From the NCBI GenBank assembly GCA_030433115.1, contig JAUILH010000002.1:4744-68743 (forward strand): 64,000 nucleotides of DNA, in the 5' to 3' direction. The DNA is from Bacteroidia bacterium (GTDB lineage Bacteria > Bacteroidota > Bacteroidia > Flavobacteriales_D > JAUILH01). Shown here piece by piece: positions 11,402 to 57,178 of this stretch. Position 1 is the stretch's first letter; each line of letters opens with the position of its first letter. Below the pieces are notes generated by a model. It saw only the letters and a list, made by a program, of their open reading frames with translations, was not told the origin of the DNA and ran no database searches. Position numbers and translations under genes: made by a program.

Positions 11402-12015
11402 ATTCTTCAAAACTGATTCTAACATTTGGGAGCTTAGTACTTGCCTTAGTTCTTTTAATGGGGACAAGCATTGGACCGGAACCCAATTCTAAAACGTCAA
11501 CTTCACAAAACATTTTGGAACAACAGCAATATGACTTCCCAAATTATCTTGACCAACGAATCTTAGGTCTGTGGAAAGCTGACTCATCAAGGACTACAAG
11601 CCCATTTGAGGAAGAAAATCACTTTTTCACCTTCCCTCTGGATACATCATTTGCTGAATTCCGTTCAACTGAAATGCAATATGCACATGAAGTCATAATG
11701 TTCTACAATAGAGATTCCATTGGTCGCTATTCAATTGAATCTAGAACAAAAATCATGTCGCTAGATTCCGCAAGTGTCGAGCCATGTGCTAGCGGCATCT
11801 CAAAAATTACGGTTAAAAATCATCAGATATCTATCAACTCACAATTCAGGGGCGGTACATTTGAATTGAAAGATGAGGTTCTGATATTAAGAAACAGACC
11901 CGGAGGTTTTACGCTCATCGATTCAATTTACACTTATTACAGCAAAATAGCCCCCAGGTCATACACATTAAAACTGGTATCAAGCTTTCCTACCATCAGA
12001 GATTGTCGACTCTAA
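11398..12015 (+). CDS. Hypothetical exported protein
   Basis: The 205-aa ORF has a hydrophobic N-terminus (LILTFGSLVLALVLLMG). Its start overlaps the hydrolase stop (ATGA at 11398-11401). I recognise no family. Confidence 0.5.
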   Translation: MNSSKLILTFGSLVLALVLLMGTSIGPEPNSKTSTSQNILEQQQYDFPNYLDQRILGLWKADSSRTTSPFEEENHFFTFPLDTSFAEFRSTEMQYAHEVIMFYNRDSIGRYSIESRTKIMSLDSASVEPCASGISKITVKNHQISINSQFRGGTFELKDEVLILRNRPGGFTLIDSIYTYYSKIAPRSYTLKLVSSFPTIRDCRL

Positions 12016-18669: not shown

Positions 18670-21027
18670 ATGCGGCTTTTTCGTAAAATATCTTTTCCTT
18701 TCCGCAGGCTTTGGTGTTGGATAAAGAAGGTGCGCTATTATTTGATAGCGGCCTTTCTTATCCTTGCGGGAATTTGGTGGTTTTGTCTGCCAAACGAACT
18801 TTTCAATGATCCAACAAGCACTGTTTTAAAAGATAGACATGGCAATATTCTGGGGGCTAGAATAGCAAGTGATGGACAATGGCGCTTTCCAGCAAGAGAT
18901 CAAGTACCATACAAATTTGAACAAGCCATTATTCAGTTTGAAGACCGTGACTTTTACGATCACATGGGGTTTAGTTTCAAAGCATTCGGACGTGCCATCA
19001 AGCAGAACATTCAGGCCGGGGAAGTTGTCAGCGGTGGTAGTACGATCAGCATGCAAACCATCAGAATTTCAAGAAAGGGTCAAACTAGAAGTGTATTTGA
19101 AAAGGTGGTAGAAGTATTTCAGTCGACCAGAATGGAAATGAGTTATTCAAAAGAAGAGATTTTGGCCATGTATGCTTCTAACGCCCCGATGGGTGGTAAT
19201 GTAGTAGGATTGGATGCCGCTGCCTGGCGATATTTTGGAACCACTCCGGAAAAATTGAGTTGGGCAGAGACCTGCGTTTTAGCTATTCTCCCAAATTCAC
19301 CTGGGTTGATTCATCCGGGAAGAAATCGGGATGCCTTGTTGAAGAAAAGGAATCGATTGTTAAAACGTCTGTATGAAGTTAAAATATTGGACAAATATGA
19401 CTATGAACTTGCCATTGCAGAGCCCATTCCTGACAAGCCCCCTCTTCTACCGAATATTGCTCCGCATCTCATGGATCGCATAATTAAGAATGGGCAGACA
19501 GGTCAAATTGTGCTTGCCACTGTTGACATTCAATTGCAGAACAAAGTCAATCGGGTGGTTGACAATCACCACAAACGTTTATCGAAAAATGAGATCCACA
19601 ATGCGGCAGTCTTGATTGTGAATAATAGAACTGGAGAAGTCATATCCTATGTAGGCAATACGGCTGGAGATAATCCCGAAAATGGCAATGCAGTGGACGT
19701 CATCCCGGCACCAAGAAGCACTGGCAGCATTCTCAAACCTTTCTTATTTGCAGGCATGATTCATTATGGAGAGATCACTCCTACGCAGCTGGTTGAAGAC
19801 GTGCCCATTATTCTGTCCGGTTATTCTCCTAAGAATTACAACGGCAAATATGACGGTGCGGTCCCGGCGAACAAGGCACTCGCCAAATCACTGAATGTGC
19901 CAATTGTCAAATTACTCAAACAATATGGCGTCCAGAAGTTCCATCACCAATTGAAGCGGATGGGCATGACAACACTTCATCAGCCGTCCTCACATTACGG
20001 ATTGTCATTGGTGCTCGGCGGTGCAGAAGCCAGTTTATGGGATTTATGTCTCATGTATTCCAATATGGCACGCACGTTAAATGATCAAAACAGCCTGAAT
20101 CAGCTTAAATTAAATAGCGGTGAAGCAGCAACAGAAACGGGCAAATTCACACCAAACAAAGCGGCTATTTGGTCAACATTTGAAGCGATGAACGGACTTG
20201 CCCGACCAGAATCTGAAGGATTATGGGAACAATTCAATTCTTCCCAGAAAATTGCATGGAAAACCGGCACCAGCTTTGGTTTTAGAGATGCCTGGGCCAT
20301 TGGTGTTACTGCAGATTATACCGTTGGTGTATGGGTTGGCAATGCAGATGGCGAAGGGCGACCGGGACTAATTGGCATTCAGGCTGCCGCTCCCGTTCTA
20401 TTTGATGTTTTTGAGTTATTGCCTCAATCAAAGTGGTTCAAAAAGCCATTAGAAGACATGGTGCCCATTGCGATTTGCAGAAAGAGTGGTTATCGCGCAT
20501 CTAGATTCTCTTCTGATGTAGACACATTACTTTTGCCCAAGTCTTGTTTGGAAACCACAGCTTGTCCTTTTTGCAGGAAGGTTCATCTTGACCCATCAAA
20601 ATCCTATCAGGTAAATAGCAGCTGTTTGTCCAGTTTCGAACTGGTCACAGAGAATCGATTCGTTTTGCCTCCCATCATGGAAAAATACTACAAGCTTAAA
20701 AATCCAAGCTACGAACCGTTACCCCCATACAAAGACCTCTGTTCCAACACCTCTGAAGAAGCCATAGCAGTCATTTATCCGAAAGAAAATAGCCGGATTT
20801 ATATTCCAAAAAACTTAGATGGACAGCACAGCAAAACTGTGTTTGAAGTATCCCACAGACAGGACACTCTCAAGGTATACTGGCATCTAAACGATCAATT
20901 CATTGGCACTACCGAAGGCAATCATGAATTATCCGTCATCCCGGAAGAAGGCAAACATACACTCACTTTGGTAGACGAGTTGGGGCAGAGCTATGTCCGT
21001 CATTTTGAAGTTTTCAGCAAGGAATAA
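18670..21027 (+). CDS. pbpC: Penicillin-binding protein 1C (bifunctional transglycosylase/transpeptidase)
   Basis: GT51 motifs are EDRDFYDHMGF and GGSTISMQ. Transpeptidase motifs are STGSILKP (SxxK), YSPKNY (SxN) and KTGTS (KTG). The start lies 1 nt after the A2M stop. Confidence 0.93.
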   Translation: MRLFRKISFPFRRLWCWIKKVRYYLIAAFLILAGIWWFCLPNELFNDPTSTVLKDRHGNILGARIASDGQWRFPARDQVPYKFEQAIIQFEDRDFYDHMGFSFKAFGRAIKQNIQAGEVVSGGSTISMQTIRISRKGQTRSVFEKVVEVFQSTRMEMSYSKEEILAMYASNAPMGGNVVGLDAAAWRYFGTTPEKLSWAETCVLAILPNSPGLIHPGRNRDALLKKRNRLLKRLYEVKILDKYDYELAIAEPIPDKPPLLPNIAPHLMDRIIKNGQTGQIVLATVDIQLQNKVNRVVDNHHKRLSKNEIHNAAVLIVNNRTGEVISYVGNTAGDNPENGNAVDVIPAPRSTGSILKPFLFAGMIHYGEITPTQLVEDVPIILSGYSPKNYNGKYDGAVPANKALAKSLNVPIVKLLKQYGVQKFHHQLKRMGMTTLHQPSSHYGLSLVLGGAEASLWDLCLMYSNMARTLNDQNSLNQLKLNSGEAATETGKFTPNKAAIWSTFEAMNGLARPESEGLWEQFNSSQKIAWKTGTSFGFRDAWAIGVTADYTVGVWVGNADGEGRPGLIGIQAAAPVLFDVFELLPQSKWFKKPLEDMVPIAICRKSGYRASRFSSDVDTLLLPKSCLETTACPFCRKVHLDPSKSYQVNSSCLSSFELVTENRFVLPPIMEKYYKLKNPSYEPLPPYKDLCSNTSEEAIAVIYPKENSRIYIPKNLDGQHSKTVFEVSHRQDTLKVYWHLNDQFIGTTEGNHELSVIPEEGKHTLTLVDELGQSYVRHFEVFSKE

Positions 21028-24261: not shown

Positions 24262-24284
24262 GGCATTAATCTCATCACCTTGGT

Positions 24285-24500
24285 ATGCGTGTTTTGATCT
24301 TATGCCTGCTTTCAATCATTGTTTATTCTTGTAATAAACCGGAAGGTTTCAAGACAAAACTGAAGGATAATGAGAACTACTACTTTAATGGTATCGGAGT
24401 TATACTTCACGGGAATCCCCAAATTATGCCGCAGGATCTGTTGAAATGGCCCTTTTTCAAAATCAAAAAATTGTCAGATTCGATAATAAAGATTCTTTAG
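24285..24500 (+). CDS. Small lipoprotein-like ORF, possibly the N-terminal fragment of a frameshifted gene
   Basis: MRVLILCLLSIIVYSCNK looks like a lipoprotein signal. The ORF overlaps the next one by 55 nt in another frame. Confidence 0.35.
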   Translation: MRVLILCLLSIIVYSCNKPEGFKTKLKDNENYYFNGIGVILHGNPQIMPQDLLKWPFFKIKKLSDSIIKIL

Positions 24501-24880
24501 ACTCAGTTGTGCATTATGCTCATAGCATGAGTAATCGATCAAAACGCAAATTAAGTATGTCAGACATGATTAATGGTGTTGATTTTTCCACTCATTCTGT
24601 TTACGTAATCTATACAATTACAGAACAACAGGAATTTCCAAACGTGTCAAAAGACAAAATTTGGGTAAATGACTCCAATAAAGAGATTTTATTCGATTTT
24701 AAGCTAAGAGTACAGATAGGTGGCAGTGGTATGGATTACGTAGCAGGGTTTTGGTACGTTATTTTACCCAAAAGCTATGATGATTACTCTATACGCTGCA
24801 CACTTCATGTGAACGAAACAGGAAAGTTGTATGGTGGTCCAGGAAATGACTATACCAGAGAATACAATCTTTTTAACTAG
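24446..24880 (+). CDS. Hypothetical protein, possibly the C-terminal part of the same gene as 24285-24500
   Basis: The ORF is 144 aa and has no signal peptide of its own. Its reading frame is already open from 24389. Confidence 0.45.
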   Translation: MALFQNQKIVRFDNKDSLDSVVHYAHSMSNRSKRKLSMSDMINGVDFSTHSVYVIYTITEQQEFPNVSKDKIWVNDSNKEILFDFKLRVQIGGSGMDYVAGFWYVILPKSYDDYSIRCTLHVNETGKLYGGPGNDYTREYNLFN

Positions 24881-25078
24881 GCTTTAGTCATTATTCCGTT
24901 CTTCGACAATATAGACCGGAAACGATAAATTAAGGATCATCAAAAAGTCTAAACTGTATCTCTCCTGCTAATTGATAACAGAGTGCGACCAACCGAAAAA
25001 ACGATTGGCAAAATTGATCTGTATTTCTTCCAGTCATATTTTATTAATTATACTTTGAGCAACTCTAAACGATACAAC

Positions 25079-25633
25079 ATGCAATTTGAAATAGAACATT
25101 GGCCAAACCGATTTGGAAAACACACCTTGACAAGACTTGTCAAGGGTTTTATTAAAGGATGGCTCCTTCTTGCTCTCATCACAATAATCATGTTTGTATT
25201 ATATTACTTTACTCATATTAACACTCTGAGGTATGTAATCCAGGGGTTTGTTTTTGTGATGATTATAGCTCCTCTGCTACCAATTGTCTCTTATTTCCAA
25301 CAGGACAGAAAGACCCCGGCATACGGCATAAACAAAGATGGATTCATTCTCAACGAAAGAGGTTGGTATGCCTGTTTTTTTAAATGGGATGAAATTGCAT
25401 CAATTGAACGTTTTGATCATCCAAAATTTGGACTGGAACTACACTTTGAGTTTGTATCGTACACAAAAGCAATCAACAAACCTAATCAGGATAAGTTCAG
25501 GCAGTCATTAATGCGGGAATATGGGATTGAAAAGCAGCCTAAAAAGATCAGCGGTCAGCTTGTGAAAGGAGATGTCACAAAGTTCATAGAATTGTTTGAA
25601 AAGTATTTTACCGAGCATCAGAGTATGGCATAG
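25079..25633 (+). CDS. Hypothetical membrane protein (two TM helices plus a soluble C-terminal domain)
   Basis: The ORF is 24983-25633. I prefer the ATG at 25079 (MQFEIEHW...). The TM segments are GWLLLALITIIMFVLYYF and GFVFVMIIAPLLPIVSYF. Confidence 0.5.
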   Translation: MQFEIEHWPNRFGKHTLTRLVKGFIKGWLLLALITIIMFVLYYFTHINTLRYVIQGFVFVMIIAPLLPIVSYFQQDRKTPAYGINKDGFILNERGWYACFFKWDEIASIERFDHPKFGLELHFEFVSYTKAINKPNQDKFRQSLMREYGIEKQPKKISGQLVKGDVTKFIELFEKYFTEHQSMA

Positions 25634-25659
25634 GTGCAATTAATAAGGCACGCTAGATT

Positions 25660-25814
25660 ATCCTATGATCCATTTGTCTCTGTTTTGAAATATGAAGTCT
25701 TCACGTTTTACAAACGTGATACTTTTTTGTTTACCATTCCCTCACTCAAACAGAGTTTGGCTCGGTTATGCCAAACAAAAAAGTCGCACCTCTCGGCGCG
25801 ACTTCATCTTATCC
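25660..25814 (-). repeat. tRNA-linked 155-bp structured non-coding module, copy 1 (3' of tRNA-Val)
   Basis: It is about 80-85% identical by eye to 47631-47788. It begins directly after the tRNA discriminator base with the shared trailer CGGATAAGATGAAGTCG (minus strand). It contains three hairpins at 25781-25804, 25756-25775 and 25701-25719. Confidence 0.85.
25777..25806 (-). terminator. Rho-independent terminator of tRNA-Val (hairpin H3 of the module)
   Basis: On the minus strand, AAGTCGCGCC-GAGA-GGTGCGACTT is followed by TTTTTTG. Confidence 0.75.
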
Positions 25815-25815
25815 G

Positions 25816-25890
25816 TGAGGCATACTGGATTCGAACCAGTGACCCCTACCCTGTCAAGGTAGTGCTCTGAACCAACTGAGCTAATGCCTC
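25816..25890 (-). tRNA. tRNA-Val (anticodon GAC)
   Basis: Hand-folded cloverleaf of 75 nt with no encoded CCA. Acceptor GAGGCAT/ATGCCTC, D-arm GCTC-AGTTGGTTCA-GAGC, anticodon arm CTACC-TTGACAG-GGTAG, variable loop GGGTC, T-arm ACTGG-TTCGAAT-CCAGT, discriminator A. Confidence 0.92.
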
Positions 25891-45370: not shown

Positions 45371-45472
45371 AGGTCATAAGGTATATAAGAGCGGATTGAG
45401 TTCGAACTTTTGGGAGGATTTGAGTTTGGTAGAGAGGATGGTCCTAGTGTGAAAGTATGGCTAAGCTGCGTT

Positions 45473-46969
45473 TCAATGCTGTTCAGGTTTTATCGACGGT
45501 AGTTTTTTTATCAATTCATATACCTTGCTTATCTCTGGATCAACTTTATCAATATAATTTTGCAAATCTTGTTTAACTAAAAAATGAGGGATTACTGGTA
45601 TGCCAATTTCAGTTTTAGAAAGTGCTATATGTCTTTCCATGGTTGGTAGTTCAAATCTGAAGCGAGAATTAGGCAAAGTGACGTGAAGGAAACCACCTCC
45701 ACAAAAAACCCCTCTAACACTGCCTGTTTCTTCTCCCACTATTGTTACATTTTCAAGTTCGGTGCATTTAGAAGCAAATATCGCACCTGCTGAAAAAGTA
45801 ATCCCACTTGTTAGAACAAAGGTATTTCCATAGTATTTGTTCTTTGTGATATTTTTAATCTTCATTTTGGGACCTGAAGGAATATGAGTGCAGGATTGAA
45901 TCTCCTTTGATTCAATACCGTCTGTCACTTTTAACCTTTGATTATCCAGTCTTAAAGTGTCATGTGTATTCAAAAAATTATAATGTCCGTCTGGATACTG
46001 GGTGTATACAGCAAAATCTTCAGTTCCATCTAGGTCGGTCACGCTATAATCAGTCCATTTGAAATCTTTAGGGCATAAGTAAGCAAATAAACACATGGCG
46101 AGTGCTCCAGAGCCTCCCCAATTTTCTCTTACATCAATTATAATATTCTCAATTTTCGACTTTCTGACCTTTTTAAAGAATCCATCAATAAACTTGTGAA
46201 AGTCTTGATTAGAATTCATAATCCGTCTGTAACCAAATGTATTAACCTCTATTATTGCGATATTGTTCTCCTTATCAAAAGTACTAGACAAGGGAGGTCT
46301 GGTATTCGAATTAATTCGAGTTTCATAATCTTTGATACCATCAATTGATTTTCGAATAGTATCTCCCAACACATTGATTGAGACAATATCATAGGTGTCA
46401 AATGGACCAAAGAAAAAATCAATATTTTGACCTAAAATTCTTTCGTTATATCGTTTTCTATAGATCGCGTTGTTATTGTCTGAGGTAGTATACCTAAAAC
46501 ATACTGAAAGAATTGAATCTGAAGAAATACTGTTAATGGAGACAATTTTTGTATGCAAGAAATCTGAAGTTCCAGAAATAAGGGTATCGACAATGTATAT
46601 TTCATTATCAATTATTTTATATCTAAAAGGTAGTGTTGTACTGCTTCTTTTCGTTGCGTTGTATTTCTCTCCAAGTGATAATCCTGTATGACCGTCTTTC
46701 AAATAGACTAATGATTCAAGAAGCTTTAGGTAGAAGGCATCAAAGGATATTGAGTCGGGAATCTCAGTGTTCAAACTTTTGAGAAGTGAATCAATTTCAA
46801 CTTTATTGCGATAAATATAACGTCCAGGATGATGATTAAGGGCATCTGAAAATACGATTAGGTCTTCATCCGCCTTTTTATGAGATAGATAAGGCTCTTG
46901 CGCGTCTGTTTCTGTGAAACCGAAAAAGAAAATAAGTGCGAGAATTGTTTGAAGTAAATATGGACGCAT
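45473..46969 (-). CDS. S41-family (tail-specific/C-terminal processing type) peptidase-like protein
   Basis: It has a signal peptide. IIDVRENWGGSGALAMCLFAYL matches the DxRxNxGG motif, and FVLTSGITFSAGAIFASK matches the catalytic Ser region TxSAxE-like. Confidence 0.7.
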   Translation of the reverse strand: MRPYLLQTILALIFFFGFTETDAQEPYLSHKKADEDLIVFSDALNHHPGRYIYRNKVEIDSLLKSLNTEIPDSISFDAFYLKLLESLVYLKDGHTGLSLGEKYNATKRSSTTLPFRYKIIDNEIYIVDTLISGTSDFLHTKIVSINSISSDSILSVCFRYTTSDNNNAIYRKRYNERILGQNIDFFFGPFDTYDIVSINVLGDTIRKSIDGIKDYETRINSNTRPPLSSTFDKENNIAIIEVNTFGYRRIMNSNQDFHKFIDGFFKKVRKSKIENIIIDVRENWGGSGALAMCLFAYLCPKDFKWTDYSVTDLDGTEDFAVYTQYPDGHYNFLNTHDTLRLDNQRLKVTDGIESKEIQSCTHIPSGPKMKIKNITKNKYYGNTFVLTSGITFSAGAIFASKCTELENVTIVGEETGSVRGVFCGGGFLHVTLPNSRFRFELPTMERHIALSKTEIGIPVIPHFLVKQDLQNYIDKVDPEISKVYELIKKLPSIKPEQH

Positions 46970-47207
46970 GATTTTTAGTGTTCATAACGCTCTAGTAAAT
47001 TTTGGTTACACATTTTACTCTTTAATCAATGCCAACTTGCTGTTATGCGTCACCATTATCAAAAAGTACAGATTAACTTATACTGAAGCAGAAAATCCGG
47101 CTATTCGGGATTACTATGATTCCTGATGTTTTCCTTGGGTACTTTTTGTGTCCAGGGCAGACTGTTACATCCAATCTTTACGCAACCTAAAAGTTAACTG
47201 TAATATT

Positions 47208-47236
47208 CCCCTCTCTGAAAAAAGTGATTTTGTTCG
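47208..47236 (+). promoter_or_regulatory. Recurrent intergenic motif, locus C (core GAAAAAAGTGA at 47217-47227)
   Basis: cccctctctGAAAAAAGTGAttttgttcgag is nearly identical to locus A. It lies about 245 bp upstream of the S41 peptidase start and about 50 bp downstream of the 61-aa ORF. Confidence 0.55.
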
Positions 47237-47283
47237 AGTATCTTCAGTTTTTCGATGAGCATGTTGGCGCAAGGAGATCAATC

Positions 47284-47469
47284 CTAATTTTTGGAATTTT
47301 CCTGCTCAAGTGTACGGATATAGTTTTCTAAAAGAAATATGGTAAACTTCTCTATTTCTCCAATATGATTCCACAATTCTTCGTCTGACGTGATTTCAAA
47401 TTTGCCCTCTTTGCTCTTCAACTTTTTGGGAGTAAGACCTGACTTACCAAGTTCATATACGTCTTTCAT
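47284..47469 (-). CDS. Small hypothetical protein (61 aa)
   Basis: It is an ORF only (MKDVYELGKSGLTPKKLKSKEGKFEITSDEELWNHIGEIEKF...). It is preceded by a phased direct repeat and a terminator, so it may be an independent transcription unit. Confidence 0.3.
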   Translation of the reverse strand: MKDVYELGKSGLTPKKLKSKEGKFEITSDEELWNHIGEIEKFTIFLLENYIRTLEQENSKN

Positions 47470-47502
47470 AATTTCAATAAAACATCAAACCCCAAGTACT
47501 AG

Positions 47503-47532
47503 TTCGAACCAAAAAGGGAAAATTTCGAACCA
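47503..47532 (-). promoter_or_regulatory. Two exact 9-bp direct repeats TGGTTCGAA (minus strand) with a 21-bp period, 34 bp upstream of the 61-aa ORF
   Basis: The plus-strand sequence ttcgaacca occurs at 47503-47511 and 47524-47532. Each repeat contains the palindrome TTCGAA. Confidence 0.45.
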
Positions 47533-47574
47533 GGACAAAAAGCTCGTAACACACTATTTATCAGTAGATTTAAA

Positions 47575-47610
47575 ACCAAAAAAAGCCAACCCCAACAGGA
47601 TTGGCTTTTT
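47575..47610. terminator. Bidirectional terminator hairpin just outside the distal tRNA-Arg repeat
   Basis: ccaaaaaaa-gccaacccc-aaca-ggattggc-tttttc has an A-run on one side and a T-run on the other. Confidence 0.7.
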
Positions 47611-47630
47611 CAAAGTGACCCCGCCAGGAT

Positions 47631-47788
47631 TACTCCATGATCCTTTGTACTCCGTTTTGAAATATGAAGTCTCCACGTTTTACAAACGTGGTACTTTTTT
47701 GTTTGACATTCTTTCGCTCAAACTTAGTTTGGCTCAATCTTGCCAAACAAAAAAGTCGTCCCGAATTCGGGACGACTTCATCTTATCC
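47631..47788 (-). repeat. tRNA-linked 158-bp structured non-coding module, copy 2 (3' of tRNA-Arg), flanked by a perfect 17-bp direct repeat
   Basis: It is homologous to 25660-25814. It is bracketed by gtgaccccgccaggatt at 47614-47630 and at 47789-47805, the latter being the 3' end of the tRNA. Its hairpins are at 47752-47778, 47727-47746 and 47672-47690. Confidence 0.88.
47748..47779 (-). terminator. Rho-independent terminator of tRNA-Arg (hairpin H3 of the module)
   Basis: On the minus strand, AAGTCGTCCCG-AATT-CGGGGACGACTT (one bulged base) is followed by TTTTTTG. Confidence 0.78.
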
Positions 47789-47789
47789 G

Positions 47790-47863
47790 TGACCCCGCCA
47801 GGATTCAAACCTGGAACCTCTTGAGCCGTAATCAAGTACTCTATTCAGTTGAGCTACGGGGCC
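47790..47863 (-). tRNA. tRNA-Arg (anticodon ACG)
   Basis: Hand-folded cloverleaf of 74 nt with no encoded CCA. Acceptor GGCCCCG/CGGGGTC (one G-U pair), D-arm GCTC-AACTGAATA-GAGT, anticodon arm CTTGA-TTACGGC-TCAAG, variable loop AGGTT, T-arm CCAGG-TTTGAAT-CCTGG, discriminator A. Confidence 0.9.
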
Positions 47864-49704: not shown

Positions 49705-50013
49705 CTATTGTATTTCTGCGTTGATACCCCTTTCCAAAATTGCAGTGCAAAGTGGTTCTAATTTTTCATATTCTCCTTCCTTGACGGAACATTTACCTTT
49801 ATAATGAATGATATGTGTACACTGTTCTGCCTGAATTAAATCGTGCTTACAAACCTTCACCAGGGTATCTATCACATGGTCAAAGGTGTTGACATCATCA
49901 TTGAACACTACAAGATGCTTGCCATCTATCATTTCTTCTAAAACAACAACATCTTCAAGCTCTTGAACATCTGCACTCGCAAGCACGTTATTCTCAAATA
50001 AATTATTTCTCAT
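49705..50013 (-). CDS. clpS: ATP-dependent Clp protease adaptor ClpS
   Basis: LVVFNDDVNTFDHVIDTLVKVCKHDLIQAEQCTHIIHYKGKCSVKEG is the conserved ClpS core. The start is uncertain (50013, 50031 or 50037), and every candidate overlaps the 3' end of the giant gene, whose stop is at 50003-50005. Confidence 0.88.
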   Translation of the reverse strand: MRNNLFENNVLASADVQELEDVVVLEEMIDGKHLVVFNDDVNTFDHVIDTLVKVCKHDLIQAEQCTHIIHYKGKCSVKEGEYEKLEPLCTAILERGINAEIQ

Positions 50014-53000
50014 TTGTTCTGGTTTTAGCATCTTCAATATCTATTTCTTCATACTTGAAAAGAGCCACAATTTCGGTGCCTTCCAAACCTTGATTGTCAA
50101 AATAGTCTTTAGCCTGCAATGCTTCTGCAAATGTACTAAAGCCCACGTAATATACGGTTTCAAAATTTTCATTTTCTTCAGAAGTCCAGTCTCTGCCTGA
50201 TGTTAACAAGACTTGAGAGAACGATTGCGGCGCTTCATTTTCATAGACTCCTAGGATTAAACGGTACTCCAAACCATCCACTGGTGTGGGTTCATTGAAT
50301 GTTGGGGCCGTATCTACTGGATCGGAATCCACGGGGGCCGAATCCACAGGGGCAGGGTCAACTGAATCTGGGTCACTTGGTTCAGGTCCCGGATCTATAT
50401 CTGTATCGTCAATGTCCTCATCTCTATTAATCTCAACATCCTCTCCCATTCTCAGTTTTTGCGCATCTTCCAAAGAAATTTCATTGAATCCGTATTTGGC
50501 TCGGATCTCTGCTCCTTCAATCCCTTGAGATTTAAAGAATTCCAATTCATCCTGGATAGACTTATAGTTTTCCATGCTATTGCTCTGATACAAGGTTCCG
50601 TTTTCTGTCTCATCTGAAGACACTTTATCCTGATTTGATAGCACAACAACTGAAAAATCGGCAGGGGCTTCTCCCTCAAACTCACCCAACCACACGTAGT
50701 ACGATAAACCTTCAATAACTACTTCATCAAAAGTCTTAGGATCAACTGTGGCATTGGCGGCACTGTTTTCTTCCGTCCATTCAAAAACAGCATCTCCCTT
50801 TTCATTGATCAACTGCTGTGCTCGTGCATTTGTAATCCTTTCACCATTATAATATGCGGTTACGAAGGCATCAGGAACAGGTCCGCCTCTAATTTCATCT
50901 CTTCTAGGAGCAGCTTCCTGAACGGATTTAAACACCCCTGTAGAGTACTTAAACAACTGATTTACCTTAAACACAACCAAAGGTTCAACTGGAATGATGC
51001 CATCCTGAATTGGTTTGGAATAGGCCCCTACCTGAACAGTGAAGTACAAACCTGGAATTCCAGCTCCCGGAATCGCGTCTGCCGCTCCAGCCGTGCTTTT
51101 TATCTGATCAATCAAATCCTTGCTTTCTTGAGATTCATTGTAGACCACTTTGCTGCCGTCATCTCCTTCAAATACCTGACTATTTCCAGTTTGGTTGCCT
51201 GTTTGATTACCAGCCTGATTGCCAGTTTGGTTCCCAGTTTGATTACCGGTTTGGGTTCCAGTTTGATTGCCTGTTTGATTACCAGTTTGGTTACCCGCTG
51301 CCACATCAATACCATCCGTGATTGGTGGATGCTCTTGTTCATAAGCTCTGGCCTGAGCCAAGTTGACGCGTTCACCGTCAATGTATGCCACAACAAAGGC
51401 ATCATCATACCCTCCAAAGCCTCTGATTGTAGTTTTCGCTTCATTGGCTGTTTTATAATCACCAAAATACCCCACCATATATCGTTTAAGGTCTCCACGG
51501 ATGGTTTCCCCTGAGATTGGGGTAAATTGATTGAACAAATCCTGAGGAATTGGTCGTGCATAGGCACCAACCTGGACTTTATAAACCAGGCCTTTCGGAT
51601 TGTCCACATCCATTGGGATTGGCTTGTCTTCGTTGTACAAAGATTGATTTGTAGTGGCGAAAATGTTTGTATTCAAACTATCCGGAACAGTAAAGTCTGC
51701 ATCTGTAGGATCCAAAATATTCACTGGTGTCATGATTGGAGACGGCATATTATCACCATGAGTACCGGTCAAGTCTCTAAATCTATCGCCTTTGTTATCT
51801 GGCAATTCAGATCTATACTTAATCAAACCATCAAAACTGATTTTATAGCCTCTTTCCTTTTCCTCAGTATCTGCTTTGGCTACGTCCAACTGATCGTTTA
51901 GATCGTTTATTTCGCCTTGAACACCAACGATTCTTTGATTATAGCCATCTTGCTCATCATCCGGAGCAGTTGCAGCTTCCGACTGAAGATCAAGCAGTTC
52001 TCTTTCTTTTTTCTTAAGCTGCTCCTCTATATCGTTCTTATTCTGGATGGCATCTTCATAGTCTTGTTTTTTGGTTTTGTTTTCCTGTAACAAACCAAAA
52101 TAAATTTGGTAATCTTCATCTCGTCGTAATGCGTCTTCCTCTCCTGGCGACAGGTCCTTAGGTGCATCTGCTATTTTCTGTGTTTCGATGGCTTTGTTCT
52201 CAGCATCTGCTATATCATCAGCTTTCTTTTTTGTTCTTACCGCTTTATCTCTCAACTCATCGGCTTCTCTATCCAATTGGTCGGCTTGTGCAGTCAATGC
52301 CTTTTTATCCTTTTTCTTGGCATCCTTAGCTTCTTGTCTCAAGGCAGCTGCTTCATTTTCTTTTTGAGTTGCCTGTTGGTTGTAGTCGTCTGCTTTACTG
52401 TAGATCTGACCAGACTTACGTTCATTTGGATCGGCGGAAATATCTGTTACATCAATGGTCTTAGCTGGATCTGAGATGCTGCCCGGTTCGTAAAACTCGT
52501 CAGACATTTCCGTAAACATGTTATACGCCTCAGTTTTCTTTCCTATGGCATCATTCTCTTTTTTGACGGCAGATTTAATCAAGCTGTTTTTCTCAGAGTT
52601 GTCTTTGGTATCGTCAGCTTTTGATCTGAGACCTTTTGCTTCATCAAATAACTCATCCGCCTTTTTATCTAAATCGCTCGCCTTAACATAGTCAGGATTT
52701 GAAGAATCCGCTACACCATTATTGGTGGCATTGTCTTTTGCCGTATTGGTTTGATCGCTTTGATTTGTGAATTGAGCTTGATTTGAGTCACCCAACTTCT
52801 GACCAACCTTGATTTCTTCTTTGTCTTTTTTGTCCTGAAGTTTATCGATTTTCTTATCGATGGCTGCTTTTTCTTTATCTGAATCGGCAGCGTCTTTTTC
52901 ATCATTCAAAGCATCAATGGCCGAATTATAGTTCTGAATCTTTTCGCGTCCCTTTTCAGTATCCTTATAATTATCCAGAGCGCTATCATCTGTATAATTG

Positions 53001-56000
53001 ACCGCTGTACTGGTATAATCAGGCTGAGACTTCACGATAATGCTTTGGTTCATTGTGATATCGTTGAGACGGTCGTTCTTCAGGTCGTTGAGTTGATCGA
53101 TTGTATTCTGTCCTGTTTCTTCATCGATATCTCCCGATTTCATGCCCTTTTCGGTCGACTCTATTTCATCATCAATCTTTTTGATAACGTCTTCATTCAA
53201 TTCATTGCGCTTACGGGCCTTGTCTTCCTCAGAGTCGTTGCCCCCATCAATAGTCGCTTGCCTTGAAGAGAATTCGCTCAACAGATCATCAAAAGAAATT
53301 TTGCCTGCTCTATCAGGTGTGGATGCTATATCCTGCAGACCATTGTTCTCTGCCGTTAGCTCATCTGTGAGTCGCTCAATGTCGTTCAAACCATTGAAAT
53401 ACGTATCATCATCAATGGTTCCATTGTTGTGTGCATCCTCCAATTCTCCCTTTTTAACATTCAGTTTGTCGATCATGTCATTGTTGCTCGCAATGATTTG
53501 TTCTGCCTTTTCTGATTCGCTCAAGTCCGGATTGCTGTTAATATCTGACTTACCACTCATGAAACCGGGGTCCAAAGCATCAAAACTGATTTTACCTCCT
53601 GGCGTGGAATCTGTAGAAGCATCCGCGATGGTCTGATAGCCCTCATTATCCGATTGAATATTAGCAGCAATTTCATCTAATTTATCTACTGCTGCCTGGT
53701 AATCATCATCCGATAAGTTTCCTTGATCCCGCTGCTGAGTTAACCTGGTTTTCTCATCTTCAATCTTACCCAAAAGGGTGTTGTTTTCATCAATTTTTTG
53801 TTGTGCTTTTTGACCTTCAGTAAGGTTTGGATCATTGTCTATATTGTCCAATGTAGACTGATGATTTGGATCGAGATTAGCCACATTGATGTCATCCAAA
53901 TTAAAGCTTGTAGAGGTTGTTCCGTTGATGATTTCATCGTTATTGGCAATGTCATCCCTAAGCCCTCTTGCCATGTCGTCTAACTTTTCATTTCTGGCAT
54001 CTGCCGTCGACTGATCTATATCTCCTGCATTGAGAGCAGCTTGCGTTTCTGATTTGGCATCATCAATTTTATCCAACAATCTATTATTCAGATCGTTTTT
54101 CTGTTTGGCCTTGTCTTCCGGAGACGCATTTGATGTTTCAATGGTATTAATCTCATCATTAAAACCGGGATCTATGTCGCCAACAGACACATCTGCACTT
54201 AAGTTATTTCCTACCGGCGGATCAGTATCTGTAGCAGCTATTAGCTGTTTATTCTCATCAATTCGGTTTTGAATATCATCCTTTAATTTGTCCAGGTCAG
54301 ATTTCTTTTGGTCTCCCTGCGCCTGAGTCAAATCACCATCACTTACTTGATCATCAATGGCCCGTTTTTCATCTTCAATTTTACTAATGAGATCATCATT
54401 GATCTTGTTTTCTGCTTTGGCTTTGTCGGCAGGATTGGTGATGTCATCCAATGCTGAGATTTGATCATTGTAACCAGGCAAAATGTCGTTAGGATTGGCC
54501 ATTTGATCAGAACCATTCTTCAAGAGGTCCTGGTTAGCAGCAATGTCATCTTCTTTTCTCTTCTTGAGGTCGTTTAAGCCATCTATTTGTGTTTTGATGT
54601 CAGATTTTTTGTCTGGGTCTGTTTCACTATCATATTGATCCTGAAGGTCTGCAATGTCTTTATCCAGTTGATCTACCCAATTCTGATCATTTTTAATCTG
54701 GTCTTGAATTCCATCAAAATCCTTATCCCTGAACTGATCGTATTTAGGATCATCGATTGCACCCGCGTACACAGGATCTTGAGATTTGACTTCTTCCAGG
54801 AGATCTTTGGTATTGGTGAAAGACTGGTCTATGTCCGAACCATTTTGCAATTTATCGTTCAGACTTTTCAGTTCCTGCTCGCCAACCGGTCCTCCAGCAA
54901 CCAGGTCGTAATTACCAGCTGCGACATCCCATGCATTTTGAGCTTGATTGGCTGCTTTTTCATCTTCAATAAGTTTGGAGGACAGGTCTTTAACTTTATT
55001 TTGTGCGTCAGACAGTTCGTCTTCTTTTCTGGCAATCTCTTCTTCAATTCCGGGTTTATCTTTCTTTTTGGCATTGTCTAGTTGCCCTTTAAGGTCAGTT
55101 ATCTCATCTTTTATGTCCTGAACAAGCCCTTTGTTGGCAGCTAATTGCTTTCTGGTTTTATCTGCAGCAGACTTTTTATCGTTATAGTCTTGCTCATATT
55201 TGGCTATTTCTTCATCATTGCTGTCACTGGCTTGTCGATCCATGACGCCCTTAATGAAATCTTGTTGTTCTTTCAGTTTGTCTACCGCATCTTCTAAATT
55301 ATTGCCATCCAGCGCATCTTTAATGCCTGATGCGAACTCTTTGGCAGTTTCATAGTCATCCTTAATGAGTTTTTCATCTTCCTCCAATTTCTTACCAACA
55401 CCATGCGCTAACCGCGCCTTATCCATATAGTTTTCTGAATCTGCAATGTGTTGTTTGGCTTCTTCCAGATACTTCTCTCTATCATCTGCATTATTAGAGT
55501 TTTTTGCTTTGTTGATGGCTTCTTTAGCTTTGTCATCAGACGCTTTGGCTTTTTTGAAATTGTCATTTGCGACAGAGAATGCTGCATCCTTTTTGTCTCT
55601 CGTATCTTCGAGTTCTTTCTTAAGATCGTCGGCGTCCTTCTGGGCAGAGGCAATGATCTCTTCATTGGTCATATCAGTTGGCGGCGGTGTATTGTCCTCT
55701 GGAAATTGGTCGGCGTTCACATCCAACTTGGCTCTATCGTTGACTATTTGACTGAGGATAGTTTCAGAATCTGGCACGTCTTCTCCGTATCTGGTATCAA
55801 TCTTAATGGTTTCTTTTCCTGCTTCTGCCATTAAAGAAATCTCTTGTGGTACCACCATCATTTTGTCATTGTAAGGCAACTCCACTACCCCTTGATGCGT
55901 GATATCACTCTGGGCTGTTTTAATTTTGAAGTTATACTTACCACTTTTAGGCAACGTAATTAAGTAATCTCCGGAAGCATTGTTGGCATTGTACACTCCA

Positions 56001-57178
56001 ACTACCTCTCCAGTTTGTGCGTTCTCTACCTGAATACTTGCTGCCCGTTTGCTTGGATCTATGTCGTTGTTGAATTTTCCTTTTAGCACCACTATTTGTG
56101 CAGGGTAACGCTTCACCCGTACATTGTACACATGAAATTGATTCAATCCGGCCTCTCTATTGGAAGAAAAATAGGCTTCATTGTCTTCACTATCCACCAC
56201 ATACATAATGTCGTCTGCCGGTGTATTAATTGAAAAGTCTAAATTCTCCGGTTTCCCAATTGCCTGACCGTTTTCATCAATTTTAATCCGGAAGATATCA
56301 TAACCTCCCATGGTATTATGTCCTTTGGAGCTGAAGTATAAATATTCTCCATTAGGATGCAGGAAAGGGTAATCTTCATCATATCTGGTATTGACATCTC
56401 CCCGCACAATTTGAGACTTCCCCCACTCTCCATTGGGTAGACGTTTAATCATGTAAATATCTTTACCGTTACTCCCATCTTCCCCGTAGCTGGAGAAAAA
56501 CACCATTTTGGTTTCATTGGACCTTTCGGGAATATGAACCACCACATCTTCATCTCTCTTTTTATCGGTTTTGGTCCGCATTTCGTCCAGATTCTTGGCG
56601 TTGATCATGCTTCCGCCTATGCCATCCAGGTTGTAGTAGTTGTAGAAATTATCTATACCGGATTTCTTTTTACTGATGACGGCCACATCTGTGATGCTGG
56701 ATAACAATTTCTTTCCGTACTCTGCAGATTGAATATCGTGAGCCACATCAAATTTCTTCTTGTCTTTGGCATCTCCGTATTTCTGAAACTTCTTATAGTA
56801 CATGAGAGCCTGCTTGAAACGGTAATTCATATGCAAGGCCCGACCAAGGAAATAGTCGTGAAGAATGGGAATCCCGTCTTTTTCATCACTTTCTTTGAGG
56901 TACTTGAGTGCCAGTTCTTTTTGTTCTGTAACCATCAAGAGGCACGCTCCATACTTATAGCGATACTCATAATTTCCCTGAAAGTTGTTGAGCAGTTTTT
57001 TATACTTTTCAAGCGCGCCAGAGTAGTCCCCATCTTCAAACATGGCATCTGCTTCCTTTTTAATTTTCTCAAAGGTCTTGTCATCAGGTACCTGGTTTGG
57101 CACATCAGAATAAGATGAGCAAACAATGACCACCAGAAGGCAAATGATATGTTTCAGTCTGTACAGCAAATCAAACAA
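50003..57178 (-). CDS. Giant (2391 aa) envelope-associated protein: TPR, PD40/TolB-like repeats, CarboxypepD_reg-like domain, about 1300-aa acidic coiled-coil/repeat region, four SPOR-like domains
   Basis: The N-terminus has a signal/anchor and TPR repeats (GDYSGALEKYKKLL). PD40 motifs are YLYFSSKGHNTMGGYDIFRI and AYFSSNREAG. IVVLKGKFNN...TGEVVGVYNANNASGDYLITLPKSGKYNFKI is CarboxypepD_reg-like. Residues of about 480-1800 are D/E/K/N/Q-rich. The SPOR-like stretches are LVYKVQVGAYARPIP..., LYFTVQVGAYSKPIQ..., LSYYVWLGEFEGEAP... and LEYRLILGVYENEAP... Confidence 0.9.
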   Translation of the reverse strand: MFDLLYRLKHIICLLVVIVCSSYSDVPNQVPDDKTFEKIKKEADAMFEDGDYSGALEKYKKLLNNFQGNYEYRYKYGACLLMVTEQKELALKYLKESDEKDGIPILHDYFLGRALHMNYRFKQALMYYKKFQKYGDAKDKKKFDVAHDIQSAEYGKKLLSSITDVAVISKKKSGIDNFYNYYNLDGIGGSMINAKNLDEMRTKTDKKRDEDVVVHIPERSNETKMVFFSSYGEDGSNGKDIYMIKRLPNGEWGKSQIVRGDVNTRYDEDYPFLHPNGEYLYFSSKGHNTMGGYDIFRIKIDENGQAIGKPENLDFSINTPADDIMYVVDSEDNEAYFSSNREAGLNQFHVYNVRVKRYPAQIVVLKGKFNNDIDPSKRAASIQVENAQTGEVVGVYNANNASGDYLITLPKSGKYNFKIKTAQSDITHQGVVELPYNDKMMVVPQEISLMAEAGKETIKIDTRYGEDVPDSETILSQIVNDRAKLDVNADQFPEDNTPPPTDMTNEEIIASAQKDADDLKKELEDTRDKKDAAFSVANDNFKKAKASDDKAKEAINKAKNSNNADDREKYLEEAKQHIADSENYMDKARLAHGVGKKLEEDEKLIKDDYETAKEFASGIKDALDGNNLEDAVDKLKEQQDFIKGVMDRQASDSNDEEIAKYEQDYNDKKSAADKTRKQLAANKGLVQDIKDEITDLKGQLDNAKKKDKPGIEEEIARKEDELSDAQNKVKDLSSKLIEDEKAANQAQNAWDVAAGNYDLVAGGPVGEQELKSLNDKLQNGSDIDQSFTNTKDLLEEVKSQDPVYAGAIDDPKYDQFRDKDFDGIQDQIKNDQNWVDQLDKDIADLQDQYDSETDPDKKSDIKTQIDGLNDLKKRKEDDIAANQDLLKNGSDQMANPNDILPGYNDQISALDDITNPADKAKAENKINDDLISKIEDEKRAIDDQVSDGDLTQAQGDQKKSDLDKLKDDIQNRIDENKQLIAATDTDPPVGNNLSADVSVGDIDPGFNDEINTIETSNASPEDKAKQKNDLNNRLLDKIDDAKSETQAALNAGDIDQSTADARNEKLDDMARGLRDDIANNDEIINGTTSTSFNLDDINVANLDPNHQSTLDNIDNDPNLTEGQKAQQKIDENNTLLGKIEDEKTRLTQQRDQGNLSDDDYQAAVDKLDEIAANIQSDNEGYQTIADASTDSTPGGKISFDALDPGFMSGKSDINSNPDLSESEKAEQIIASNNDMIDKLNVKKGELEDAHNNGTIDDDTYFNGLNDIERLTDELTAENNGLQDIASTPDRAGKISFDDLLSEFSSRQATIDGGNDSEEDKARKRNELNEDVIKKIDDEIESTEKGMKSGDIDEETGQNTIDQLNDLKNDRLNDITMNQSIIVKSQPDYTSTAVNYTDDSALDNYKDTEKGREKIQNYNSAIDALNDEKDAADSDKEKAAIDKKIDKLQDKKDKEEIKVGQKLGDSNQAQFTNQSDQTNTAKDNATNNGVADSSNPDYVKASDLDKKADELFDEAKGLRSKADDTKDNSEKNSLIKSAVKKENDAIGKKTEAYNMFTEMSDEFYEPGSISDPAKTIDVTDISADPNERKSGQIYSKADDYNQQATQKENEAAALRQEAKDAKKKDKKALTAQADQLDREADELRDKAVRTKKKADDIADAENKAIETQKIADAPKDLSPGEEDALRRDEDYQIYFGLLQENKTKKQDYEDAIQNKNDIEEQLKKKERELLDLQSEAATAPDDEQDGYNQRIVGVQGEINDLNDQLDVAKADTEEKERGYKISFDGLIKYRSELPDNKGDRFRDLTGTHGDNMPSPIMTPVNILDPTDADFTVPDSLNTNIFATTNQSLYNEDKPIPMDVDNPKGLVYKVQVGAYARPIPQDLFNQFTPISGETIRGDLKRYMVGYFGDYKTANEAKTTIRGFGGYDDAFVVAYIDGERVNLAQARAYEQEHPPITDGIDVAAGNQTGNQTGNQTGTQTGNQTGNQTGNQAGNQTGNQTGNSQVFEGDDGSKVVYNESQESKDLIDQIKSTAGAADAIPGAGIPGLYFTVQVGAYSKPIQDGIIPVEPLVVFKVNQLFKYSTGVFKSVQEAAPRRDEIRGGPVPDAFVTAYYNGERITNARAQQLINEKGDAVFEWTEENSAANATVDPKTFDEVVIEGLSYYVWLGEFEGEAPADFSVVVLSNQDKVSSDETENGTLYQSNSMENYKSIQDELEFFKSQGIEGAEIRAKYGFNEISLEDAQKLRMGEDVEINRDEDIDDTDIDPGPEPSDPDSVDPAPVDSAPVDSDPVDTAPTFNEPTPVDGLEYRLILGVYENEAPQSFSQVLLTSGRDWTSEENENFETVYYVGFSTFAEALQAKDYFDNQGLEGTEIVALFKYEEIDIEDAKTRTNEK
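50303..50392 (-). repeat. In-frame 15-bp (5-aa) tandem repeat encoding PGPEPSDPDSVDPAPVDSAPVDSDPVDTAP
   Basis: About four (D)(S/P)(A/D)PV units lie between the third and fourth SPOR-like domains. Confidence 0.7.
51182..51295 (-). repeat. In-frame 12-bp tandem repeat, about 9.5 copies, encoding (GNQT)n
   Basis: The protein segment is GNQTGNQTGNQTGTQTGNQTGNQTGNQAGNQTGNQTGN (aa 1962-1999). The plus-strand unit is ccagtttgRttN. Confidence 0.9.
53024..54487 (-). repeat. Five divergent tandem repeats of about 98 aa within the acidic region (aa 898-1385)
   Basis: Each unit begins (L/I)DPG(F/Y)xxxI, then has NP/SPxxKAxxKxxxNxxLxxKIxDEK, then GD(I/L)(D/T) ... D(K/Q)L(D/N)D. Unit starts are at aa 898, 1000, 1099, 1198 and 1296. 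Confidence 0.75.

Follow-up and report, generated by a model that had tools for sequence, protein, structure and literature searches.

How did a sequence of about 155 bp come to lie immediately behind a tRNA-Val gene, closed on its far side by what looks like a worn second copy of the tRNA's own 3' end, and why does a similar sequence follow a tRNA-Arg gene in the same region? Both loci lie in the stretch of 64,000 nucleotides analysed here (hereafter the window), which is ordinary chromosomal DNA of a member of the Bacteroidota with a G+C content of about 40%. It encodes proteins with type IX secretion sorting domains, TonB-type outer-membrane proteins, and housekeeping functions, and the closest named relatives of the neighbouring proteins belong to Crocinitomix and Crocinitomicaceae (order Flavobacteriales). 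Only two tRNA genes are present, both on the minus strand and each followed by a module of the kind in question (Table 1). Besides these 64 kb of the source genome, approximately 55 kb of three related genomes were read. A sister genome (ENA ERZ25074695, contig ctg340534, 2.27 Mb) was reached via the neighbouring proteins and provided the loci L021 (tRNA-Arg) and L023 (tRNA-Val). Its M48 peptidase and Dus proteins are 89% and 83% identical to those of the window, respectively, the identity of coding DNA is about 76%, and neither tRNA gene shows any difference. A more distant relative (contig ctg334470, locus L031) has an M48 peptidase with 71% identity to that of the window. Loci reached through orthologues of the outer-membrane protein, and through one Dus orthologue, have no tRNA gene, because synteny was lost there. 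Two long minus-strand open reading frames (ORFs) of the window (50003-57178 and 57853-62364; 2391 and 1503 aa) gave no match to Pfam at E values up to 1e-5 and are both kept in the sister genome.

Table 1. Coordinates of the tRNA genes, module parts, flanking repeats, and terminators in the window.
Feature	Position	Strand	Evidence or remark
tRNA-Val(GAC)	25815-25890	-	ARAGORN; Rfam tRNA 68.6 bits; 100% identical in sister locus L023
Val proximal repeat copy	25815-25831	-	tRNA-Val nt 58-74, AATCCAGTATGCCTCAC
Val element copy	25660-25814	-	155 bp (156 bp including C74 at 25815); 84% identical to Arg copy
Val linker	25808-25814	-	
Val closing stem P1, 5' strand	25800-25807	-	
Val hairpin 1	25786-25799	-	
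Val long hairpin P2	25721-25785	-	
Val hairpin 3	25701-25719	-	
Val closing stem P1, 3' strand	25692-25699	-	
Val tail	25660-25691	-	Ends in GGATCATAGGAT
Val distal repeat	25643-25659	-	AATCTAGCGTGCCTTAT, decayed copy of tRNA-Val nt 58-74; 12/17 vs AATCCAGTATGCCTCAC
tRNA-Val intrinsic terminator	25780-25805	-	Hairpin 1 extended by GAAGTC/GACTT, then T run; scan: 11 pairs, tail TTTGTTTGGC
Convergent intrinsic terminator	25701-25719	+	Hairpin 3, then TACTTTTTTG; terminator scan
tRNA-Arg(ACG)	47789-47863	-	ARAGORN; Rfam; identical in sister locus L021
Arg proximal repeat copy	47789-47805	-	tRNA-Arg nt 58-74
Arg element copy	47632-47788	-	157 bp (158 bp including preceding C); absent from sister genome
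Arg linker	47782-47788	-	
Arg closing stem P1	47774-47781 and 47664-47671	-	
Arg hairpin 1	47758-47773	-	
Arg long hairpin P2	47693-47757	-	
Arg hairpin 3	47673-47691	-	
Arg tail	47632-47663	-	
Arg distal repeat	47615-47631	-	AATCCTGGCGGGGTCAC, perfect copy of tRNA-Arg nt 58-74; 17/17 vs 47789-47805
Native tRNA-Arg terminator, displaced by insertion	47579-47611	-	Scan; directly 3' of tRNA in L021 12355-12390

Global alignment of the two modules (25660-25814 against 47632-47788) gives 133 identities in 159 columns, or 84%. This agrees with the 80-85% that the initial annotation, made from the sequence by eye, had estimated, and the start that it gave for the Arg partner (47631) is corrected to 47632. 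BLAST of either copy against the window returned these two copies only and no third. Read in the direction of the tRNA, both loci have one layout, consisting of a C, the trailer GGATAAGATGAAGTCG, the remainder of the module, and a copy of nt 58-74 of the local tRNA. Both modules begin one base past the tRNA discriminator, and the trailer CGGATAAGATGAAGTCG occurs in the window exactly twice, at 25799-25815 and 47773-47789, compared to a mean of 0.08 matches in shuffled sequence, where none of 100 shuffles reached two. The equal starting points and identical trailers first seen by eye are thus confirmed for both tRNA genes, and the trailer is not a general tRNA terminator, as the tRNA-Arg gene of the sister genome lacks it. 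A Bacteroidota-type promoter of the form TTTG-N21-TAAGTTTG was noticed in the Arg copy and dropped as a candidate, as it is not conserved in the Val copies.

Among all 127,968 17-mers of the window, matches of at least 12/17 to the Val 17-mer occur at a frequency of 1.5e-4; without the AATC common to both copies, the match is 8/13, with a frequency of 4.8e-3. The former value applies to a register set beforehand, directly past the module; an unconstrained 600-nt search reaches 12/17 fairly often, and such a search of the empty site in L021 yielded one 12/17 hit. At the position of L023 that corresponds to the distal repeat of the window, the copy still matches in 16 of 17 positions (AATCCAGTATGCCCCAC), which supports the Val repeat of the window. 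Each 17-mer of the window is an exact or decayed copy of the end of its own adjacent tRNA, such that the Arg and Val elements are 82-85% identical over body and tail while their 17-mers are only 11/18 alike. That the distal repeat is specific to the local tRNA, as had been proposed, is true for the Val locus, for the Arg locus of the window, and for L031, where the tRNA-Arg end differs. Like elements that carry unlike, locally matching 17-mers indicate that the repeat was templated by the target at insertion, an outcome that point mutation cannot produce.

Comparison with the related genomes provides a relative chronology. The tRNA-Arg locus of the sister genome is an exact empty site, in which the tRNA gene (...GAATCCTGGCGGGGTCAC, ending in AATCCTGGCGGGGTCAC) leads straight into the native terminator. 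The two Arg loci differ by 174 bp, corresponding to the 157-bp module and one 17-bp copy, and the site is therefore polymorphic for the insertion. Behind its tRNA-Val gene, the sister genome carries an element at the same position, with the same start (CGGATA), the same architecture, and different stem sequences. Since this site is filled in both genomes, the Val insertion predates their split. An empty Arg site next to a filled Val site bears out the earlier view of two independent insertions at two tRNA 3' ends, of which the Val event is the older. The Arg insertion is probably younger than the split, with loss from the sister genome by deletion between the repeats being less likely. Such a deletion could leave a site that looks alike, and the tRNA-Arg site in L031 is filled, though by a very different member of the family. 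The last 21 tail nucleotides of the Val elements of the window and L023 are nearly the same (20/21; 25660-25680 vs. 19996-20016), but their bodies are only 61% identical. This mosaic shows that conversion or replacement has acted and blurs the history of the locus; one of the two lineages has apparently undergone replacement or conversion of the element body.

The fourth member, in L031, lies behind a tRNA-Arg(ACG) gene with a different 3' end and has two terminator arms (z = -10 against shuffled sequence). Its tail consists of GGGATCAC, a hairpin, and GGTAATCCC, followed by a degenerate copy of its own tRNA end. About 70 bp past this first distal repeat, a second tail copy (GGGATCAC...GCGGTAATCC, 11451-11489) is found without a four-way-junction body of its own, which suggests a remnant of an earlier insertion that was pushed outward, and hence repeated insertion at this site. 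The four known copies, from three genomes, measure 156-167 bp and constitute a repeat family.

We interpret 25643-25831 as an old insertion of a non-autonomous mobile element of small size (~156-167 bp) and without coding capacity, which precisely targets tRNA 3' ends and generates a 17-bp target duplication. We assign this reading a probability of roughly 60%, a figure that covers transposition-like insertion with a duplication of fixed length and includes the claim of mobility. The element would be placed past tRNA position 74 and would leave the tRNA intact, and the second copy of nt 58-74 on the far side would arise most simply from staggered cuts at 57/58 and 74/75. Insertion would supply the tRNA gene with a new intrinsic terminator and add a second one in the opposite direction. 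Together with the closing stem, the terminator arms would form a long imperfect palindrome able to adopt a four-way junction, and the tail motif NGGAT would pair with the tRNA-derived ATCCN'. According to this scheme, the Val copy was inserted before the window and sister genomes split and the Arg copy afterwards. The enzyme would presumably act in trans and be encoded elsewhere, with the palindrome and the tail as its likely recognition features. Caution is warranted by the failure to find an enzyme or an autonomous partner in the DNA read, by the lack of terminal inverted repeats, and by the low number of copies (n = 4).

The tRNA-derived repeats may also be read differently. The modules could be miniature integrative elements or island remnants mobilized by a tyrosine integrase encoded elsewhere, with the 17-mer being an att core carried by the element (attP) rather than a duplication, and with the palindromic body and tail serving as binding arms for the integrase or accessory proteins. 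A 17-bp repeat of a tRNA 3' end would also fit an att core, as its position and length (T loop to 3' end) are typical of such cores at tRNA genes; published abstracts describe islands at tRNA-Asn and tRNA-Gly with flanking direct repeats of 17 bp. At the distal junction, the inverted repeat NGGAT...ATCCN' could likewise represent paired core-type binding sites. The difficulty lies in the target-specific repeat, which conservative recombination cannot make: two elements with 84% identity would already have needed, before integration, two different 17-mers, each an exact match to the tRNA that it was to enter. A crossover at the AATCC or TCAC edge would leave one Val-type copy at the Arg locus, yet neither copy there is Val-type, and a crossover in the T loop needs identity, which is lacking between CATGGAGTA of the element and TTTGAAT of the tRNA. 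Furthermore, no integrase gene was found in the window or the related loci, and independent decay would not be expected to give four elements of nearly the same size (156-167 bp) in three genomes. As unlike 17-mers, each of its own tRNA type, sit on like elements, transposition-like insertion is favoured, and we consider an att core unlikely. Of the initial proposal of a target duplication, the part that the repeat follows the local tRNA holds, and a true duplication is more probable than an element-borne att core.

The surroundings of both loci fit an integrase-based history as well. The genes just past the two tRNA loci are non-homologous between the window and the sister genome, with syntenic flanks on either side, as is seen at island hot spots. 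Behind tRNA-Arg, the variable segment comprises a 61-aa ORF and an S41 peptidase gene in the window (45422-47546) vs. three other genes in L021 (12422-15879); behind tRNA-Val, it comprises two small ORFs in the window (24262-25642) vs. 9 kb with DNA-repair, acetyltransferase, and HxlR genes in L023 (10973-19978). Neither version of these segments (window, L021, L023) encodes an integrase. The differing gene content and the tRNA-3'-like remnants further downstream make classical island traffic at both sites plausible, too. One such remnant may be a 32-bp block of 97% conservation that bounds the variable segment behind tRNA-Arg (45390-45421; L021 15880-15920). It contains the T-loop-like GTTCGAAC and continues in L021 to GGGGTCAC, a tRNA-Arg end, which would be consistent with an old tRNA-3' remnant or an att scar. 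The loop of the native tRNA-Arg terminator (AATCCTGTTGGGGT, 47589-47602; L021 12367-12380) matches the tRNA 3' end in 12 of 14 positions, and a second tRNA-3'-like copy of this kind occurs about 100 bp further on in L021 (12457-12480). These matches could be due to chance or could be older duplications of the same target. In addition, two occurrences of GGTTCGAA with a spacing of 21 bp lie immediately upstream of the 61-aa ORF (47503-47531, minus strand); elsewhere in the window, this sequence is found only in the T loop of tRNA-Val.

Copying between tRNA loci might even have proceeded without a dedicated enzyme, through template switching during replication or through repair at microhomologies. 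The switch points would be TCAC at the tRNA end and the AATCC of the T loop, which are common to both tRNAs and the donor junctions, and a switch back to the upstream AATCC would produce the 17-bp duplication. Both junctions indeed lie within short sequences shared by donor and recipient (TCAC|GGAT and T|AATCC), only two sites are occupied within 64 kb, and the family is rare in public data. Against this, at least three separate events (at Val, at Arg in the window, and at Arg in L031) used identical positions for both junctions. Template switching also explains neither where the first copy came from nor why fold and tail would be selected, and it is thus a quite improbable source of the modules.

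The second property in need of explanation is the secondary structure. The predicted folds are more stable than those of shuffled sequence (z = -6.4 for the Arg and -4.3 for the Val module), and all four copies are predicted to form a four-way junction composed of the closing stem P1, the G+C-rich hairpin 1, the long P2 with a T run paired to an A run, and hairpin 3. This fold is conserved with P1 sequences that are unrelated among copies (ATGAAGTC/GACTTCAT in the window, CAATGCA/TGCATTG in L023, and CATTAT/ATAATG in L031). Between the window copies, 38 of the 47 predicted pairs are unchanged, five show compensatory double changes, two are kept after a one-sided change, and two are broken. This pattern indicates that the predicted fold is under selection.

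Each module contains one intrinsic terminator per strand, and the scan predicted three sites per 700 bp vs. 0.3 in shuffled sequence. The body is thus made of two convergent terminators arranged as an imperfect palindrome, which P1 lengthens beyond what termination needs. At the Val locus, the plus-strand terminator faces a 216-aa ORF ending at 25633. Because the two terminators converge, a full-length transcript from either side should be prevented, which argues against both an RNA intermediate and a single functional RNA. For the window copies, the fold of the tRNA-sense strand is the more stable one (-52.0 vs. -37.6 and -54.4 vs. -47.4 kcal/mol); the L023 and L031 members show no strand asymmetry in folding, and a test based on G-U pairs cannot separate RNA from DNA structure. 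Insertion by tRNA-primed reverse transcription, in the style of a retroviral primer-binding site, was considered and rejected, as CCA is missing from both copies and the distal copy passes directly into the native flank. Arms of the window type (ATGAAGTC, a G+C hairpin, and GACTTTTTTGTTTG) also occur as plain single terminators in other Bacteroidota (L006 2677-2720 and L002 2779-2815), one of them directly behind a tRNA-Phe gene and one near a tRNA-Arg(CCT) gene of Crocinitomicaceae, and the module arms may derive from this common local terminator type.

Behind P1, the 32-nt tail of the window copies ends in GGATCAT.G..T and is followed at once by the tRNA-derived AATCC, so that the motif GGATCAT.G..TAATC reported for the two distal junctions is present at each. 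More generally, a conserved tail GGATCAY...TAATCC is found in each of the four copies, in which NGGAT is complementary to ATCCN' from the tRNA. In every case compared, the nucleotide that precedes GGAT can pair with the one that follows AATCC in the tRNA, namely T-A at Val, A-T at the Arg site of the window, and G-C at that of L031. This complementarity points to recognition by pairing. The resemblance of the junction to a tRNA T-arm, suggested initially, holds only in part: the tail and the ATCCN from the tRNA make up a stem of 5 bp, but its register is two bases off the real T stem.

The closest arrangement that we found is that of the RtT repeats in the tyrT-tyrV region of Escherichia coli (Rfam RF00391, rttR/tpr), which have the same layout and an unrelated sequence. 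An RtT unit of about 159 bp lies directly behind the tRNA gene and closes with a copy of the tRNA that starts at A58 and reaches the 3' end (...GAGT|AATCCTTCCCCCACCACCA, corresponding to nt 58-76 of tRNA-Tyr, 19 nt). The junction T|AATCC, i.e. T|A58, is the same as in the window elements, and the unit segment GGGGAAGGAT pairs with the tRNA-derived ATCCTTCCCC to form an outer stem, as NGGAT does with ATCCN' here. RtT units form a tandem array of 3.1 copies, each of 178 bp, and one more unit lies in the tyrT-tyrV spacer. In E. coli K-12 (NC_000913, 1286600-1287630), the units and the spacer all end in T|AATCCTTCCCCCACCACCA and each contain a GGGGAAGGAT that pairs with it; this end pairing reads as an acceptor/T-stem minihelix with a large insert in its loop. 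E. coli genomes have between 1 and 9 RtT places, and 18 places are on plasmids. The covariance model RF00391 found no match in the window modules at E values up to 10, while the four E. coli units score 133-138 bits. The RtT repeats also lack the four-way junction of convergent terminators (z = -0.9 against shuffles for a single unit), and the window elements differ from them in having a documented empty site and in occurring at two tRNA species. The window modules are therefore not members of the RtT family, and the layout alone is common to both. To our knowledge, RtT units occur behind tRNA-Tyr only and have never been shown to be insertions, and their layout has been known for decades without an explanation.

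This likeness raises the alternative that the modules do not move at all and are vertically inherited, tRNA-linked RNA or terminator modules, with the sister Arg site being a deletion between the 17-bp repeats and gene conversion homogenizing copies within a genome. The E. coli RtT units, with the same layout, are indeed RNA processed from the tRNA transcript, the tRNA-Arg site of L031 is filled, the mosaic Val elements demonstrate that conversion or replacement occurs, and the greater stability of the window copies on the tRNA-sense strand would be in line with a role as RNA. However, the other two members lack this asymmetry, and hairpin 1 with its T run should end the tRNA transcript before the remainder of the module. 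Moreover, the Arg repeat is perfect and the older Val repeat decayed in the same genome, and the window Arg element is far closer to the window Val element (~83% identity) than to the Arg element of L031 (~50%). We therefore regard a non-mobile origin as highly improbable and retain insertion of a small mobile element as the preferred explanation.

Searches for the machinery of such an element were negative. Pfam scans of 40 window ORFs identified no integrase, transposase, or Cas1 domain, and the precomputed Pfam lists of L021, L023, and L031 contain no recombinase domain. Neighbouring ORFs without an assigned family matched no mobile-element or phage family, and no autonomous partner element was found in the DNA read. 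Rfam returned tRNA only, both at gathering thresholds for the whole window and at E values up to 10 for the two loci. An exact pattern of the left arm, searched in species-representative genomes, gave 12 listed matches, all of them ordinary terminators and one directly behind a Bacteroidota tRNA-Phe gene; the closing stem plus tail start gave four listed chance matches in JGI metagenomes; and three motifs searched in viral contigs gave either no match or a phage phosphatase gene. Further copies were thus not present among the matches listed for these three collections, and BLAST of the module against GenBank phages and PLSDB plasmids yielded no match. No terminal inverted repeats are consistent across the four copies, as the left ends (GGATAAG..., GGATAGT..., and AAGCTC...) show no match to the right ends (...GGAGT, ...AGGAT, and ...GTGGT) in reverse complement. 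DDE transposases and casposases normally require terminal inverted repeats.

Individual features of the element are known from other systems. Family 2 casposons, which use a Cas1-type integrase, integrate at a tRNA 3' end with a fixed 14-15 bp target duplication, and their target motif TCAAATC lies upstream of the duplicated segment in a leader adjacent to and partly overlapping the tRNA-Pro gene (PMC6614799). The window element also lies at a tRNA 3' end, with a long duplication of 17 instead of 14-15 bp that differs in its starting position relative to the T loop. Casposons are large, self-replicating, mostly archaeal, and equipped with terminal inverted repeats, whereas the window element is 157 bp long, lacks such repeats, has no known cas1 nearby, and has a putative 17-bp duplication that starts inside the T loop. 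MITEs, Correia elements, and REPINs resemble it in being small, non-coding, non-autonomous, strongly palindromic, intergenic, and possible terminators, and MITEs additionally have a target duplication, as is the case here at tRNA-Arg (17/17, with a single copy at the empty site). However, the inverted repeats of MITEs are terminal, while the window palindrome with P1 lies inside the element, starting 7-12 nt after its left end and stopping 32-47 nt short of its right end, and the window element targets one precise position in tRNA genes. Most bacterial insertion-sequence families duplicate 2-14 bp, which makes 17 bp a longer duplication. With islands and cis-mobilizable elements borne by an integrase, the window element has in common that direct repeats of the tRNA 3' end flank the insert and that the tRNA gene remains intact; it differs in its length of only 157 bp, in lacking an integrase, and in a repeat that follows the target across close relatives, so that elements about 83% alike have 17-mers matching at 11/18 instead of a constant att core. 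Elements of the IS200/IS605 type have subterminal hairpins, insert 3' of a short motif, and produce no target duplication; the window element has hairpins but is flanked by a duplication of 17 bp and therefore does not fit this type either. Compared to these systems, the element is probably best described as a small insertion module specific for tRNA 3' ends.

The ends of tRNA genes are classic landing sites of large islands that bear their own integrase. A gene-free element of 157 bp that enters different tRNA genes at a single exact position, leaves 17 bp of the target in duplicate, and changes termination in both directions would differ in kind from these islands, and it would provide the E. 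coli tyrT/RtT repeats with a possible origin. Tentatively, these elements, and perhaps the RtT units too, could represent an unrecognised class of site-specific mobile DNA, whose enzyme would recognise the T-arm/acceptor end of a tRNA, cut at 57/58 and 74/75, and duplicate 17 bp, aided by the NGGAT/ATCCN' pairing; we hold this possible but rather doubtful. In that case, members of one element family could move from one kind of tRNA gene to another. Such a targeting enzyme, if identified, could be a candidate for precise insertion beside tRNA genes.

The modules also have practical consequences for assembly and annotation. They break short-read assemblies at tRNA loci, and Logan contigs of the source organism end at these modules. 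In addition, they give rise to spurious ORF calls: the plus-strand ORFs at 25634-25870 (78 aa) and 47390-47824 (144 aa) run antisense across the modules and the tRNA genes and are almost certainly not genes, although automatic annotation could call them.
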